A stretch of DNA of 34,933 bases from the IMG/VR virus record IMGVR_UViG_2778261229_000002, positions 1 through 34,933 of that record, one strand, 5' to 3'. The position numbers were made by a program, and so were the translations under genes. Positions within the stretch are counted from its first letter, which is position 1. Each line of letters begins with the position of its first letter. The notes under the pieces are model-generated. The model saw only the letters and a program-made list of their open reading frames with translations, ran no database searches and was not told the DNA's origin. Shown piece after piece: positions 1 to 34,742 of the stretch. The DNA is from a virus. Taxonomy: Duplodnaviria > Heunggongvirae > Uroviricota > Caudoviricetes.

Positions 1-780
1 GACGAAATTTGGGAAAAGGGCCTGTGATGATCCAGACGCAGCACGAATAGAAGCCTCTACCGTTCTTCCTGTTTCCGTAGCAACTAAGCCAGCACCGTCT
101 TTTGATGCTAGCTTGATTGCCAAATCTGCCGTTTCAGTTTGCCCTGCAATCGGAACAGGATCCCCCTGGTCATTGAATCCAATCAGCATATTTGCTCTGG
201 CTCGTACAGATGCCATGATTCCTACCTGACTTTCCGGAACTCGCAAAGTTCGCTGGAAAAGACCATCTGCATGATGAGTGCTGTCATTGTCTCCCGAGTC
301 CACATAAGATTTTGTTGCTGCATCCTGTGCCTGTGACGGGTCACGCAGATTACGAATGCGGTTGTTGAGTGCGTCGTAATAGTTCGCGATGAACGACGGC
401 TTACGCAGCGCCAGGCGGAGAAAGCTGAAGCACTGCTGGATAAGCATGGTCAGCTTGTCGAACGCATCCTCATGTACCTCTGCGAAAAATTTCCCCTGGT
501 TACGCAGATCAGTCTCCTGGGTAACAGGCAAGTCACGTGAGATAGAGATTTGCCATCCGTTGGCCAGAGGTGACATCAACACAACGCTCCCACCTGAATA
601 GCTTCCCGCCCCGGTAACGGAGTAATCGGTATCCAGAGTAAGTACCGTAATATTTTCGTTAAGGTCAGCAACCTGTACTGTCAGATCTGACTTCTTGAAG
701 ATACGAAACTTGTACGGGAAAGATGTGGTAACGCCGTTACCAGTGTATTCGTTGTGGTCAACTTCGGTTGAGACCGTCAT
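1..780 (-). CDS. Tailspike / tail fibre protein, N-terminal virion-attachment domain (gene runs off the left edge)
   Basis: Minus-strand frame is open from the ATG at 778-780 to the window edge. It translates to MTVSTEVDHNEYTGNGVTTSFPYKFRIFKKSDLTVQVADLNENITVLTLDTDYSVTGAGSYSGGSVVLMSPLANGWQISI, which I recognise from memory as the conserved N-terminal domain of epsilon15/phiV10-type tailspikes. Not in the ORF track because there is no stop inside the window. Confidence 0.6.
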   Translation of the reverse strand, partial: MTVSTEVDHNEYTGNGVTTSFPYKFRIFKKSDLTVQVADLNENITVLTLDTDYSVTGAGSYSGGSVVLMSPLANGWQISISRDLPVTQETDLRNQGKFFAEVHEDAFDKLTMLIQQCFSFLRLALRKPSFIANYYDALNNRIRNLRDPSQAQDAATKSYVDSGDNDSTHHADGLFQRTLRVPESQVGIMASVRARANMLIGFNDQGDPVPIAGQTETADLAIKLASKDGAGLVATETGRTVEASIRAASGSSQALFPNFV

Positions 781-4809: not shown

Positions 4810-4821
4810 GTGACATGTCAC
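4810..4821. repeat. 12-bp perfect palindrome GTGACATGTCAC (copy 1 of 3)
   Basis: Identical 12-mers at 4810-4821, 22023-22034 and 24324-24335. This copy overlaps the stop codon of the 4818..5114 gene. Confidence 0.6.
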
Positions 4822-21288: not shown

Positions 21289-21356
21289 ATCAATGACTCC
21301 GTACGCAATTAAATTATTACCAATTTAACCACATATGATTTATTTATCGTAGAATG

Positions 21357-22022: not shown

Positions 22023-22034
22023 GTGACATGTCAC
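22023..22034. repeat. 12-bp palindrome GTGACATGTCAC (copy 2 of 3)
   Basis: Exact copy; lies between the terminase large subunit stop and the tRNA insert. Confidence 0.6.
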
Positions 22035-23584: not shown

Positions 23585-24213
23585 TGATTGCCATCCTGAC
23601 GTTCTTTGAGTCGCTTCCTGGCTGCTGCTATGCGATCAGCAATTGTCACATTCACATTAACATCCAGACGTTCTTTGAACGCGTTAACGTCGACGTGCTT
23701 ACCGATGAGCTCGAGGTTTTTCACCTTGTCGGGCCATTTCACCTTCTTCAGGATATGCTCGACATCCTCAACAGAGAAATCCGCCTCGCCATTCTCTTTT
23801 TGCAGGGAAGCCTGGGTTGTCTTGATGGTAGCGATATCCATAGCACTGAGAGAGGTACGCCAGACCTTCGGCCATTCAGCGATCGGCTTCATCCCGCCGT
23901 CATCGTTCAGTATATCCAGCACGTCCATCTGGTCGATCTCCACCAGGCGCATGAGAACGTAATCAGCACTGACGCGCATTCGTTTGTTGCGCTCCTCCAT
24001 CAACTCGGCAATCCGTTTTTGAATGCGTTCATCGCGCATCATGACACTGGCTTTAACTGCCGCTGTATTTGGGGAGAATCCTGCGTTAATCGCTGCCTGA
24101 GTCTGGTTTTCAGGCGTTTTGATGTATGACTGGCAATAAGCCTCCTGCATTGCTGTTAGTGGCTTAAATTGCGTTGATTTGCGTTTATAGGTTTTAGGTT
24201 CAGCAGGCATCAT
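23581..24213 (-). CDS. terS: Terminase small subunit, about 210 aa
   Basis: ORF-track frame 23581..24291; I prefer the start at the MM pair (24208-24213), because the upstream 26 codons run through a tandem DNA repeat. HTH-like block QEAYCQSYIKTPENQTQAAINAGFSPNTAAVKASVMM is typical of P27-type small terminases. Stop overlaps the terL start. Confidence 0.65.
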   Translation of the reverse strand: MMPAEPKTYKRKSTQFKPLTAMQEAYCQSYIKTPENQTQAAINAGFSPNTAAVKASVMMRDERIQKRIAELMEERNKRMRVSADYVLMRLVEIDQMDVLDILNDDGGMKPIAEWPKVWRTSLSAMDIATIKTTQASLQKENGEADFSVEDVEHILKKVKWPDKVKNLELIGKHVDVNAFKERLDVNVNVTIADRIAAARKRLKERQDGNQ

Positions 24214-24220
24214 AACCACC

Positions 24221-24252
24221 GTGGTAATAGTTACCGTTGTGGTAATAGTACC
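24221..24252. repeat. Tandem 15-bp direct repeat GTGGTAATAGTTACC / GTGGTAATAGTACC, each an internal palindrome
   Basis: Two adjacent copies separated by GTT, immediately upstream of the terS start. The half-sites GGTAA/TTACC are the operator half-sites in inverted arrangement. Confidence 0.5.
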
Positions 24253-24282
24253 ATGCAAAATAAAGCCGCCATAGTTGGCGGC
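24253..24282 (-). terminator. Intrinsic terminator on the minus strand (GCCGCC-aactat-GGCGGC followed by TTTATTTTG)
   Basis: Hairpin at 24265-24282 with a T-rich tract on the minus strand, between the 115-aa gene and terS. Confidence 0.5.
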
Positions 24283-24323
24283 AGTATTCAAAACCCGTCA
24301 AATTCATCATGCATAATCTACTC

Positions 24324-24335
24324 GTGACATGTCAC
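24324..24335. repeat. 12-bp palindrome GTGACATGTCAC (copy 3 of 3)
   Basis: Exact copy overlapping the stop codon of the 24332..24679 gene. Confidence 0.6.
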
Positions 24336-24679
24336 ACTATTAATTTCGTTTCATGCCAGCCTTTAGTCACCCAGCATTGCGAGTCACCATTACACGGGCA
24401 TGAATTAACTGGAACTCTCTCGCCGCACTTACCGCAACGTTTTCTGCTGATCGATTTTATACGCCCGCGCACACGTGCATCATCCTGGCGGATCAGCAGC
24501 GCGATGTACTCGGCCATTTCATAGGGATCGCGACCAGGGCGCCGGGCGGCGCAGTTCCGCGCTAGCATTTCCTGCTCCTGCTTATCCAGCACCAGTTCAA
24601 TTTTGCGCTCACCGGCGGCGGACTGCCGAGCGCGCTGCGCGGCTTTGCGTTCTGCGGGGGATTTAGCCACGAATCGCAC
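24332..24679 (-). CDS. Hypothetical protein with C-terminal Cys-rich (zinc-ribbon-like) motif, 115 aa; candidate late-gene regulator
   Basis: C-terminus RKRCGKCGERVPVNSCPCNGDSQCW. Last gene before a terminator and the terminase genes, which is the positional analogue of a lambdoid late regulator. No homology asserted. Confidence 0.45.
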   Translation of the reverse strand: MRFVAKSPAERKAAQRARQSAAGERKIELVLDKQEQEMLARNCAARRPGRDPYEMAEYIALLIRQDDARVRGRIKSISRKRCGKCGERVPVNSCPCNGDSQCWVTKGWHETKLIV

Positions 24680-26355: not shown

Positions 26356-26715
26356 TCACTCTCCTTTGATGCGAATGCCAGTAGCGCGGATTGCATCGAT
26401 GACTTCAGAAACTTTGTATGCCATTACCGTTTGGTAATCATCGTGAAAATCTGTTCGATGAAGCATGCTGCTACGTTCCGGGAGCAGTATTTCCCGCGCT
26501 TCCAGCTCTGCAATGCGTTTGCTTTGGGCTTCTCGTTCATCCAGCAGCGCCAGCACAATGTGTGGCGTTATCAAGGACTCAAATTCGGCAACAGCTTGCT
26601 CACCTCGCTTGTAATTCTTAATCCCACCTAAATCTTTCGCGTTCTGTGCCGCCTCACGCAGCGCCAGTGTGTCGATGTCGATGTCGATGTCGATGTCGAT
26701 GTCGATGTTGCTCAT
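26356..26715 (-). CDS. Ea22-like coiled-coil protein with N-terminal (Ile-Asp)6 repeat, about 119 aa
   Basis: ORF-track frame 26356..26739; I prefer the start MSNIDIDIDIDIDID at 26715, overlapping the upstream stop. Segment PHIVLALLDEREAQSKRIAELEARE resembles lambdoid Ead/Ea22-like proteins. Confidence 0.45.
   Translation of the reverse strand: MSNIDIDIDIDIDIDTLALREAAQNAKDLGGIKNYKRGEQAVAEFESLITPHIVLALLDEREAQSKRIAELEAREILLPERSSMLHRTDFHDDYQTVMAYKVSEVIDAIRATGIRIKGE
26671..26706. repeat. Perfect hexanucleotide tandem repeat (GTCGAT)6, in-frame, inside a CDS
   Basis: Six exact copies followed by a degenerate seventh (GTTGCT). Encodes IDIDIDIDIDID on the minus strand. Confidence 0.9.
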
Positions 26716-26945
26716 TGTGCCTCCTCGATTTCGTCCCATTCCACCCAGGCATTCTCTCCATCAGCATCGATTTCACCTTTGTGACCGCATTTGGAACAAA
26801 CGGCCTCATCACCCGCCCACAAAGAATCTTTGGTTACCGACCATCCTGTTACCCTGGCTTTGCCGTGCTGGCACTTAGGGCAATCATCAAGCCATTCGAC
26901 TTCGACCGTTGAAGGACCAAATCCATGTTCAGTTCGGATGCTCAT
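26712..26945 (-). CDS. Small zinc-ribbon protein, about 77 aa
   Basis: ORF-track frame 26712..26978; I prefer the internal ATG at 26945, overlapping the upstream stop. Two Cys pairs: CPKCQHG and CSKCGHKG. Confidence 0.45.
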   Translation of the reverse strand: MSIRTEHGFGPSTVEVEWLDDCPKCQHGKARVTGWSVTKDSLWAGDEAVCSKCGHKGEIDADGENAWVEWDEIEEAQ

Positions 26946-28001: not shown

Positions 28002-28065
28002 GATTTACCCCTGAGGTAATTAAAAACCACATAAGACACGAAATCAATAGATCTTAGAACATTTT

Positions 28066-28919: not shown

Positions 28920-29716
28920 GCTTCAGGGCTGTTCCAGTGCGGAACGTTGTTATCAGGTAATGTTGATTGCTTCTGTCTGCTAATCTGCAGCCGCCTTGCT
29001 AGCTTCTGCTCCCACTGTGCCTGATGGTATGCCTTACCCTCAGCCATCCAGTAAATTCTGAACTCTGCAAGTTCCTGTGCCGTTGGCAGACTGTCCAGGT
29101 AGATCCCCTGCAATGAGCTTTTCCGAAGAAAGTCATCTGATGGCTGCCATTGTTCATGCATGACAAATTTGCCTAATTGCCCTGGCCCACCAGGAGGAAC
29201 AAAGTTATTCATCACGGCGTTGTTTGCGCCGGGGTCATGATGCACAGAATCCCCGTTTTTTGTCCTGCTCTCCCTCTCTTGGTTAAATGACTGGTTATAT
29301 GACTGGTTCTGGATCCCGTTTTTGGGATCATTCAACATCCCGTTTTTGGGATCATTCAACATCCCGTTTTTGGGTATATTCCCGTTTTCGGTAACATTAC
29401 CGTTTTCGGGTTCATTGCCCCCCTCTCGGTTGCCTTTAATGTTCCCGTTTTTGGTTATATTAAGAGAGAAAACCCGCACTCTTTTTGTCGCTCCCTTTCT
29501 CTCCCCGGTATCTGAAATAAGCCCCATTTTCATGAGCGATATAAGTCCGGCCTGCACGGTTTTTTTATTCAGGCAAGTGTCTTTAACGAGGCGTTCTATG
29601 CTGGGGTAGCAGAGGTTATATTCATCGGCTCTGTCAGCCATCGAGAGCAGTATGAGCTTTAATGACGAGCTACCTGGATCTGTCTCCCAGGCCCAATCTG
29701 TTGCATGTCTGCTCAT
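28901..29716 (-). CDS. Replication initiator (O-like) with internal origin iterons, 271 aa
   Basis: Position upstream of the P-like gene; DNA iterons inside the coding region produce the repetitive Asn/Gly-rich segment (NGMLNDPKNGMLNDPKNG). Confidence 0.6.
   Translation of the reverse strand: MSRHATDWAWETDPGSSSLKLILLSMADRADEYNLCYPSIERLVKDTCLNKKTVQAGLISLMKMGLISDTGERKGATKRVRVFSLNITKNGNIKGNREGGNEPENGNVTENGNIPKNGMLNDPKNGMLNDPKNGIQNQSYNQSFNQERESRTKNGDSVHHDPGANNAVMNNFVPPGGPGQLGKFVMHEQWQPSDDFLRKSSLQGIYLDSLPTAQELAEFRIYWMAEGKAYHQAQWEQKLARRLQISRQKQSTLPDNNVPHWNSPEAWEDFL
29314..29461. repeat. Replication-origin iteron array, about six copies of CCCGTTTTTGGG(A/T)T-like units, including an exact 24-bp tandem duplication
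   Basis: TCCCGTTTTTGGGATCATTCAACA at 29314-29337 and again at 29338-29361, followed by degenerate copies up to about 29461. Lies inside the O-like gene, as in lambda ori. Confidence 0.7.
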
Positions 29717-30467: not shown

Positions 30468-31052
30468 ATGAAAAGTATCCAGGACGTCCGCAGGCAAAAT
30501 CTCAACGACTTGATCGACCGTGAATTCAATGGTGTTCAGACGCGGATGGCTGAAAAACTTGGAACTCAGGCAAATCTGGTAAACCGCTGGGCTCTTGGCA
30601 AGAAGGTTATCGGCGACCAGGTTGCGCGAAAAATTGAAGCTGCCGCCAATAAACCCCGTAACTGGCTTGATATCGATCGCTCGCTTTCTCAGGAAGGTTT
30701 TCAGCCTGTCGGACCAAGCGACATTGGTCAACTGGCGGCTCACAACCTGGAACGCTGGATGAGCGAAAGCCGCGACCTTTCAACGCAGGGAAAACTTCAC
30801 CGCGCATCCGGCGTCGCCCAGGTAACAATCAGCCGCCTGTTAAACAATGAGGTCAGCGTTTCCATTTCCACCCTGGAGAATGTTGCATCCGCATTTGGGC
30901 GTCACGGATATGAATTACTGATTCACCCGCACGACCCCGCGACTATCAACTATGACCGCTCGCGCTACGCATTGTTACCTGAAACAGAGAAGGCAAAGAT
31001 CGAAAGTTACATTGAATTTGTCATCAACCAGAACGAAAAAAACAAACAATAA
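30468..31052 (+). CDS. Phage repressor with two tandem XRE-type HTH domains and no S24 peptidase domain, 194 aa
   Basis: Two HTH-like segments (QTRMAEKLGTQANLVNRWALGKK and LHRASGVAQVTISRLLNNEVSVS). No Ala-Gly/Ser-Lys autocleavage module visible. The opposite-strand ORF 30420..30743 is judged spurious. Confidence 0.65.
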   Translation: MKSIQDVRRQNLNDLIDREFNGVQTRMAEKLGTQANLVNRWALGKKVIGDQVARKIEAAANKPRNWLDIDRSLSQEGFQPVGPSDIGQLAAHNLERWMSESRDLSTQGKLHRASGVAQVTISRLLNNEVSVSISTLENVASAFGRHGYELLIHPHDPATINYDRSRYALLPETEKAKIESYIEFVINQNEKNKQ

Positions 31053-34099: not shown

Positions 34100-34742
34100 G
34101 AAATACACACTAATCTATGCAGATCCACCCTGGGCATACCGGGACAAAGCCGCAGATGGTAATCGCGGTGCCGGTTTTAAATATCCGGTTATGAGTGTGC
34201 TGGATATCTGCCGCCTTCCTGTGTGGGATTTGACCGCTGAAAACTGTCTGTTGGCCATGTGGTGGGTGCCAACACAACCACTCGAAGCACTAAAAGTTGT
34301 TGAAGCCTGGGGATTCCGTCTGATGACCATGAAGGGCTTCACGTGGATAAAATGTGGTAGTCGACAACCAGATAAACTGGTTATGGGTATGGGACACATG
34401 ACTCGCGCCAATACTGAAGATTGCCTGTTTGCGGTAAAGGGAAAACTACCTACGCGCATTAATGCAGGGATCGTTCAGTCATTTACCGCACCGCGGCTTG
34501 AGCATTCAAGAAAACCAGATATCGTTCGTGAAAAACTTGTGCAATTGTTAGGCGATGTTTCTCGCATTGAACTGTTCGCCCGCCAATCGTCTCATGGCTT
34601 CGATGTTTGGGGTAATCAGTGCGAAGACCCGGCAGTGCAACTACACCCTGGATACGCGTTGGATATTGCCGGATTAACAAATGCATTCAGCAATGCTCCG
34701 CTGTCACCAACAGACAATCAGGGGCGGGAGCGTGCAGCATGA
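34092..34742 (+). CDS. MT-A70-family N6-adenine DNA methyltransferase
   Basis: ORF-track frame 34080..34742; I prefer the ATG at 34092 preceded by GGGGTGG. Signature LIYADPPWAY (DPPW motif) near the N-terminus. Confidence 0.75.
   Translation: MNKKYTLIYADPPWAYRDKAADGNRGAGFKYPVMSVLDICRLPVWDLTAENCLLAMWWVPTQPLEALKVVEAWGFRLMTMKGFTWIKCGSRQPDKLVMGMGHMTRANTEDCLFAVKGKLPTRINAGIVQSFTAPRLEHSRKPDIVREKLVQLLGDVSRIELFARQSSHGFDVWGNQCEDPAVQLHPGYALDIAGLTNAFSNAPLSPTDNQGRERAA

Follow-up and report, generated by a model that had tools for sequence, protein, structure and literature searches.

Predicted repressor operators, an intrinsic terminator and a palindrome associated with a small predicted ribbon-helix-helix protein at the early/late gene boundary of a phiV10/epsilon15-like prophage

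The entry into phage late genes is controlled in different ways in different described systems. In Gram-positive phages, late activators of the RinA/ArpU type are encoded by a small regulator gene immediately upstream of terS and are sigma-like proteins acting on a promoter in front of terS. The mycobacteriophages L5 and L1 carry many dispersed repressor sites, called stoperators, some of them without a detectable sigma70-like promoter, and repressor bound to such sites is thought to halt elongating polymerase. The closest system is that of the phages epsilon15 and SPC32H, whose repressor Rep is described as a tetramer on palindromic sites (PMC9638917). In the GenBank record of epsilon15, seven ATTACC-N5-GGTAAT sites carry the annotation 'protein_bind, repressor, lysogeny'. 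The locus described here lies at 24213-24679 of the IMG/VR virus record IMGVR_UViG_2778261229_000002, whose whole length (positions 1 to 34,933; 34,933 nucleotides) was analysed and is called the window in what follows. On the minus strand it comprises the gene of a 112-amino-acid (aa) cysteine-rich protein, a palindrome, a terminator, two 15-bp sites and terS, in that order. As judged from sequence, the two 15-bp sites (O1 and O2) would be Rep operators, the terminator would end the early-right operon and the palindrome would be the gene product's own site, an account to which, as a whole, we give a probability of roughly 65%.

The region around these elements is 91-97% identical at the nucleotide level to phiV10, TL-2011b, phiv142-3, epsilon15 and other Uetakeviruses, and its gene order agrees with the phiV10 and epsilon15 records. 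The locus is an unremarkable junction of early and late genes in a phiV10/epsilon15-like (Uetakevirus) prophage, a temperate podovirus. The late genes, like all features at 24213-24679, are on the minus strand, and the early-right operon contains a Cro-like gene, replication genes, DUF1064 and Ea22-like genes, with the 112-aa gene as its last member. An earlier reading of the window, made from the sequence only, had listed the gene, the palindrome, the terminator and the tandem repeats, and a sequence check found each of them in place:

24332-24670, minus strand: gene for the 112-aa predicted ribbon-helix-helix plus Cys4 protein, homologue of phiV10p55 and epsilon15 gp49
24324-24335, no strand assigned: palindrome GTGACATGTCAC, exact (GTGAC-AT-GTCAC), on the TGA stop of that gene; putative site of the 112-aa protein
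24306-24335, minus strand: candidate sigma70-like promoter (GTGACA, 18 nt, CATGAT) with 9 of 12 consensus matches, low confidence
24257-24282, minus strand: intrinsic terminator closing the early-right operon, recognised by stem plus U-tract, RNA fold and conservation
24231-24245, no strand assigned: predicted operator O1 (TTACCGTTGTGGTAA), exact TTACC-N5-GGTAA
24213-24227, no strand assigned: predicted operator O2 (TAACCACCGTGGTAA), one mismatch to TTACC-N5-GGTAA
23581-24210, minus strand: terS, terminase small subunit (Pfam Terminase_2, E = 4.8e-28)
30468-31052, plus strand: prophage repressor gene Rep, full-length match to the crystallised SPC32H repressor (PDB 5D50, E = 4e-42)

Followed on the minus strand from the end of the gene, the sequence runs through GTGACATGTCAC (24335-24324), a 42-nt spacer, and the hairpin with TTTATTTT (24282-24257), and then, after the terminator, through GCATGGTACTA, TTACCACAACGGTAA, CTA, TTACCACGGTGGTTA and TG-ATG, where terS begins.

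The tandem repeats before terS are, by prediction, two standard operators of the prophage repressor and not sites of the Cys-rich protein. They are assigned to Rep because the window holds a 15-site motif and a full-length repressor of the SPC32H type, and because an annotated epsilon15 site corresponds to one of them. Allowing at most one mismatch, the window has 15 occurrences of TTACC-N5-GGTAA where 0.52 would be expected, and none of 100 shuffles had as many. These sites flank the repressor gene (30350, 30398, 31110 and 31172) and head transcription units (30013, 28067/28005, 24231/24213, 21379, 3416, 2406 and 885), and the same consensus is found at the same junctions in phiV10, epsilon15, Tyrion and SPC32H. 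In epsilon15, the repressor site annotated at 12..27, directly upstream of terS (47), is the positional homologue of O1, with which it shares its flanks (terminator, GYRTGKTACTA, site). O1 is present in every relative examined, and O2, in the form TTAC[C/T]-N5-GGT[A/T]A, in most of them, including one (L124) that lacks the GGTGG core. The operator part of the locus is therefore already known, as it is annotated in epsilon15.

Consensus, genome positions, homologous repressor and paired sites are all shared with the epsilon15/SPC32H system, from which nothing essential differs; the epsilon15 record annotates O1 alone, while O2 is well kept in the window. The window Rep is a 194-aa protein with two helix-turn-helix motifs, and the pairing of operators would fit tetramer binding. 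The members of a pair are 18 bp apart at terS and 62 bp apart at both the DUF1064 unit (28005/28067) and PL (31110/31172). The 62-bp spacing at the DUF1064 unit is strictly kept in the window and four reference genomes (L003-L006), whose leftward operators also include a 62-bp pair, and its constancy suggests a fixed loop or tetramer geometry. Dispersed repressor sites, some of them lacking a detectable sigma70-like promoter, are a feature shared with the stoperators, but L5 sites are asymmetric and orientation-dependent, whereas the window has fewer sites (about 15), which are perfect palindromes and frequently come in pairs (18 or 62 bp).

The two 15-bp units that the sequence-only reading saw abutting terS are indeed two sites; their exact identity, however, extends over 11 nt only, as a direct repeat (GTGGTAATAGT) at 24221 and 24239 detected by a generic repeat finder, with a period of 18 bp. 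Tandem Repeats Finder gave the terS-proximal repeats no score, just two copies being present. That reading had also taken their half-sites as an inverted arrangement, GGTAA-N3-TTACC, within a late-gene control region, with the Cys-rich protein as a possible binder. The position before the packaging and late genes and the presence of an immunity-operator element hold, but the inverted element does not, since it is the junction (GGTAA-TAG-TTACC) of two operators in standard orientation; elsewhere in the window GGTAA-N3-TTACC occurs at one 1-mismatch site, at chance level. A role of the repeats as a pac or terminase site was rejected as well, since the motif recurs at about 13 further positions, the immunity region among them.

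O2 lies directly before the start codon of terS and covers its Shine-Dalgarno sequence, GGTGG. In the RNA structure predicted for the terS leader (24200-24260, minus strand), O1 pairs through its left half with the O2/Shine-Dalgarno GGUGG, and the ribosome-binding site of terS might be masked in this way in read-through transcripts. Another short element, ATATGTGGTTT, is found with at most one mismatch on the minus strand at 844-854, 1223-1233, 2364-2374, 21326-21336, 28024-28034 and 34512-34522, and it follows the Rep operators at 885, 2406, 21379 and 28067 at a distance of 30-45 bp in the late direction. Its raw count is not significant (13 versus 8.5 expected at two mismatches); its arrangement with the operators is found in phiV10, epsilon15, Tyrion and SPC32H too, with the position kept, and the motif may belong to the leader of each unit under Rep control.

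The protein encoded before the terminator was given as 115 aa in the sequence-only reading, with a CxxC...CxC motif; the motif is confirmed, and the length is 112 aa. The start is GTG 24670, and not GTG 24679, because all 120 close homologues are about 112 aa long and begin with MAKSPAERK; it overlaps the stop of the upstream open reading frame (ORF), and the TGA stop is at 24334-24332. The cysteines are arranged as C79-x2-C82 ... C91-x-C93 ... C99. In an alignment of 55 diverse homologues, C79 and C82 never vary and the conservation of C99 is at least 90%, while R8 and R13, in a basic motif near the N terminus (RK..QR.R), are also among the best conserved residues; a central cysteine (C91 or C93) likely supplies the fourth ligand. 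The protein has no Pfam, NCBIfam or PDB sequence match and matches phrog_536 'transcriptional regulator', and an exhaustive search put the size of its family at 151 clusters at 50% identity. The AlphaFold2 model (predicted local distance difference test, pLDDT, 90.4) has helices at 5-19, 30-42 and 52-74, followed by a C-terminal knuckle, and shows the beta-alpha-alpha fold of the ribbon-helix-helix (RHH; CopG/Arc/MetJ) superfamily, while three of the 55 family members match Pfam RHH_5 or RHH_1 weakly (E = 0.013-0.07). On this model, the protein is probably a dimeric RHH DNA binder with a C-terminal Zn(Cys)4 module.

A C4 zinc finger of the DksA/TraR type was considered and kept as no more than a weak lead. 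The family profile matches TraR and YbiI at E = 0.04-0.07, which is not significant, and the Pfam and Foldseek results for the family contain no DksA/TraR similarity; the fourth-ligand pattern (C..C...C...C-W) departs from the CxxC-N17-CxxC finger of those proteins. In one relative, L048 (IMGVR_UViG_3300007747_000006), presumably a decaying prophage, a deletion has taken out the palindrome, the terminator and both operators, leaving the RHH gene fused by its 3' end to the beginning of terS.

The palindrome on the stop codon of this gene, which the sequence-only reading had counted as copy 3, is an exact GTGACATGTCAC, of which the window contains three copies against 0.08 expected. The other two are:

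22023-22034, no strand assigned: second GTGACATGTCAC copy, 4 nt from a hairpin terminator at the junction of terL and a moron island
4810-4821, no strand assigned: third GTGACATGTCAC copy, abutting the terminator that ends the virion-structural operon

Both are kept at the same junctions in phiV10, epsilon15, Tyrion and SPC32H. Three junction copies are found in epsilon15 and SPC32H, and two in phiV10 and Tyrion, where the third is split by the record ends. The association with the protein was followed through 191 family loci from IMG/VR and GenBank, which fall into 32 clusters at 80% identity. GTGAC-N2-GTCAC lies exactly on the stop codon of the homologue in 17 of the 32 clusters, at identities down to 33%, and between -51 and +230 nt from the stop in 27, that is, in ten besides the exact cases, at identities down to 26%; chance would account for about 3e-4 per cluster. 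All 233 occurrences at the family loci have N2 spacing, and none has N3. Phages of epsilon15-like, P2-like, N15-like, lambdoid and Vibrio types carry the pair, and homologues with only 33-45% identity still have the site on or beside their stop, as GTGACGCGTCAC in a P2-like Yersinia phage, GTGACTGGTCAC at phiKO2 gp45 and GTGACAGGTCAC in the Vibrio-type contig L094, or, in the case of L095, as GTGACGGGTCAC just past a TAG stop. In some of the ten clusters without an exact stop-codon match the ORF reads through the palindrome as V-T-G-H; because one lineage has a TAG stop with the palindrome after it, the palindrome is not a coding constraint. A role at the RNA level was rejected, as its hairpin (-2.9 kcal/mol, z = -0.49) folds no better than shuffles. 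GTGAC-N2-GTCAC is thus the probable target of the 112-aa protein, and the sequence-only reading aimed well in naming the GTGACATGTCAC sites, too, as possible targets. A literature search returned nothing for the 12-mer, the link between protein and palindrome is not in the GenBank annotations examined, and the link appears to be unreported.

A fourth exact GTGAC-N2-GTCAC (GTGACGGGTCAC) is found at 333-344, in the N-terminal coding region of the tailspike, where it encodes an RDPS motif, and SPC32H carries GCGACCCGTCAC at the equivalent place; as a site of the protein, it was set aside as probably a coding coincidence. The Vibrio phage K233 (L199, HK97-like) has exactly three GTGAC-N2-GTCAC sites, at 21342, 33227 and 35942, two of which lie 19-20 nt upstream of start codons, one being that of terS (19 nt).

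The half-sites of the palindrome are the same as those of E. coli matS (GTGACRNYGTCAC), the site of MatP (PMC6907758), and MatP is likewise an RHH protein. However, matS has 13 bp (N3), against a constant 12 bp (N2) in the phage site, with no N3 site in the window or the family loci, and the phage protein has neither an N-terminal four-helix bundle nor a C-terminal coiled coil, but a Cys4 module instead. Homology to MatP was rejected: hhalign against E. coli MatP gave E = 0.3 over 13 columns, the MatP sequences retrieved being copies about 99% identical, and no match to PF06303 or PF17414 was seen. The likeness to matS/MatP is a resemblance and not membership.

Between the palindrome and the operators, the intrinsic terminator proposed in the sequence-only reading is well supported. 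Its stem, GCCGCC-AACTAT-GGCGGC at 24282-24265, is followed by the tail TTTATTTT, and the RNA folds at -16.9 kcal/mol (z = -2.9), a value reached by none of 200 shuffles. It is kept in phiV10, epsilon15, Tyrion, SPC32H, 66FD and dozens of IMG/VR relatives, with a different hairpin in its place in some lineages, and it is annotated as a terminator in the epsilon15 and phiV10 records. The sole Rfam match, to rseX, is below threshold (27 bits versus a gathering score of 50 bits, E = 0.17-0.5) and was rejected because it is driven by the terminator and a U-rich stretch.

The -35 element of the candidate promoter at 24306-24335 falls within the palindrome, and in epsilon15-type relatives GTGACA-17-TAAATT stands in its place. 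A consensus scan showed that the early operators lie within sigma70-like promoters with 9-10 of 12 matches, namely PL (TTGACA-17-AATTAT), PR (TTGTTA-17-TATTAT) and the promoter of the DUF1064 unit (TTGATA-16-TAAAAT, with the operator within the spacer). The same scan found no sigma70-like promoter at the terS operators or at the operator of the portal operon.

The start of terS is probably ATG 24210, with 24213 as the alternative, because epsilon15 terS begins at the equivalent MPAEP codon; terL follows on the minus strand at 23584-22109. In the phiV10 record (L003, NC_007804.2) the coding sequence of terS is given as 41-715, its start at 41 being a TTG equivalent to window 24291, which would place the terminator and both operators within the coding sequence. 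Of the two, the start of the epsilon15 type (MPAEP, at 24210 of the window) is the likelier one.

These elements suggest how the boundary might work. In the lysogen, Rep on the O1/O2 pair would keep terS-terL silent, acting mainly as a block to polymerase arriving from upstream by read-through or moron transcription; alternatively, O1/O2 could be the operator of a weak, factor-dependent promoter. The roadblock role is proposed because the terS operators, unlike the early ones, show no detectable promoter of the sigma70 type, and it is attractive because a variable moron island precedes each late operon examined and because in two Klebsiella relatives a LexA-box moron lies between the palindrome and O1, in one of them without an intervening terminator. 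The intrinsic terminator would end the early-right operon, and the 112-aa protein would bind the palindrome on its own stop codon and not the tandem repeats. What the analysis shows is that the sites match in sequence and are conserved, that Rep is homologous, that the fold is predicted and that gene and palindrome occur together; the binding of Rep and of the 112-aa protein, the roadblock role and any effect of the 112-aa protein on termination are what we infer from the sequence. Some points weigh against this account: O2 is degenerate in SPC32H and absent from Klebsiella relatives, and since it overlaps the Shine-Dalgarno sequence, translation signals could explain part of its conservation; in addition, the half-sites of the palindrome never vary, so that the link with the protein comes from co-occurrence and not from covariation.

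The proposal that the Cys-rich protein binds the repeats, read as GGTAA-N3-TTACC, and activates or antiterminates late transcription was suggested by a gene lying directly upstream of terS, by the predicted DNA-binding nature of its product and by a terS without a sigma70-like promoter, for which a positive factor is plausible. It has very little left in its favor, since the repeats parse as standard operators matching those of the window and the annotated epsilon15 site, the alternative element is confined to the terS front apart from its one chance-level site, and the family tracks GTGAC-N2-GTCAC, not TTACC, across five phage types. Only slightly less improbable is that the palindrome is a host-factor site, a recombination or module boundary, or a packaging signal hitch-hiking with the gene. 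The half-sites equal to those of matS would fit this idea, as would the position of all three copies at the upstream edge of variable moron islands and of the Klebsiella moron directly after the palindrome, but N2 in every one of the family occurrences, never the N3 of matS, the low chance expectation per cluster, and a motif that follows the gene through cos and headful phages and through hosts from Vibrio to Yersinia all argue against it.

If the palindrome is the target of the protein, what binding would do can be read in two ways, each of them rather unlikely when taken singly. The protein could be a DNA-loaded antiterminator acting at palindromes, with read-through into terS-terL and across morons, a Q-like function in a protein unrelated to Q. 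All three window palindromes lie 0-42 nt before an intrinsic terminator, in one transcription direction, the late operons lack sigma70-like promoters, and the early genes of the window include no recognisable late regulator, be it Q, Ogr or another. The gene position, too, recalls lambda Q/PR'/tR', with a last early gene, a possible promoter, a short stretch, a terminator and the late genes, and with a presumed site that overlaps a promoter-like element, although the geometry varies between lineages; in the Vibrio type, the order is gene, palindrome(s), promoter-like element, a leader of about 90 nt, a strong terminator and lysis genes. The K233 palindrome upstream of terS and the weak profile matches to TraR and YbiI, which are RNA-polymerase secondary-channel proteins, point the same way, but the latter similarity is not significant and the Cys spacing differs. 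Unlike Q of lambda, the window protein is half the size and of the RHH type, it has three sites per genome and not one, and the terminator is about 25-45 nt from the putative start; it gave no Pfam, NCBIfam or PDB sequence match to Q-lambda, Q21, Q82 or any other Q, and its fold is not similar to that of a Q family either. Moreover, the phiKO2 homologue coexists with a Q-like gp38 having its own putative late promoter, and in the P2-like Yersinia phage the homologue lies after gene A while a separate 72-aa regulator occupies the ogr position after gene D, for which reason membership in Ogr/Delta was also rejected. The distance from palindrome to terminator or promoter is not fixed, ranging from 0 to more than 300 nt with morons inserted, and the gene is found in the nin region of lambdoid contigs and next to int in others. 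Unlike the RinA/ArpU proteins, whose gene position it shares, the window protein is a predicted RHH protein with a zinc module and a putative site on its own stop codon.

Repression is the classical function of RHH proteins, and the 112-aa protein could instead act at palindromes as a repressor, roadblock or insulator that aids termination, represses promoters and shields convergent units, a reading that is equally compatible with the data as a late switch by antitermination and no more probable. The palindrome shares sequence with the candidate promoter in its -35 and spacer, in Klebsiella relatives it stands 6 nt upstream of the -35 of the LexA-box moron promoter, and weak or bidirectional hairpins at convergent junctions accompany two of the three sites. 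A block of terS entry by a lytic-phase protein is hard to explain, however, as is the K233 site 19 nt upstream of terS, and since the gene belongs to a Rep-repressed operon, a lysogen should lack the protein although insulation would matter most there. A broader generalization, that the epsilon15-gp49 family is an unrecognised class of DNA-loaded termination regulators, acting on pre-terminator GTGAC-N2-GTCAC, with the first site on the family's own stop codon, to switch on packaging and late operons and to carry polymerase across moron islands, is a conjecture of similarly low probability.

Each variable moron island of the window has the 12-bp palindrome and a terminator at its upstream edge (4810-4821, 22023-22034 and 24324-24335) and, at its downstream edge, a Rep operator (885, 21379 and 24231) before the next late operon. 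In Klebsiella Uetakeviruses (L010 at about 1540-1620, L011 and L013; also L137 and L148) a moron follows GTGACATGTCAC directly, before O1 and terS. Its promoter, TTGACT, is overlapped by a perfect LexA box (TACTGTTTAAATATACAGTA), and its product is a UmuD-like or another small protein.

Two further repeats were seen among the early genes. An Ead/Ea22-like ORF (26356-26739, minus strand) has in its 5' part a hexanucleotide microsatellite at about 26670-26710 (MSNIDIDIDIDIDIDT...) coding for (Ile-Asp)x6-7. The replication-initiator gene contains, on the plus strand at 29323-29342 and 29347-29366, two identical hairpin-forming units of 20 nt (TGGGATCATTCAACATCCCG), 24 bp apart and each followed by TTTTTGGG, which look like origin iterons.

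The finding as first stated matters little, since repressor sites and a terminator before terS are conserved, and already annotated, in epsilon15-like phages. The useful by-product is a small unstudied family with a probable DNA target on its own stop codon, which offers a testable protein-site pair spanning podoviruses, P2-like myoviruses, N15-like plasmid prophages, lambdoid phages and Vibrio siphoviruses. The 112-aa protein is also the only recognisable candidate for late-gene control in Uetakeviruses. Finally, because promoterless Rep operators head the late operons examined, the layout suggests how a temperate phage may stop morons expressed in the lysogen from leaking into lethal late genes.

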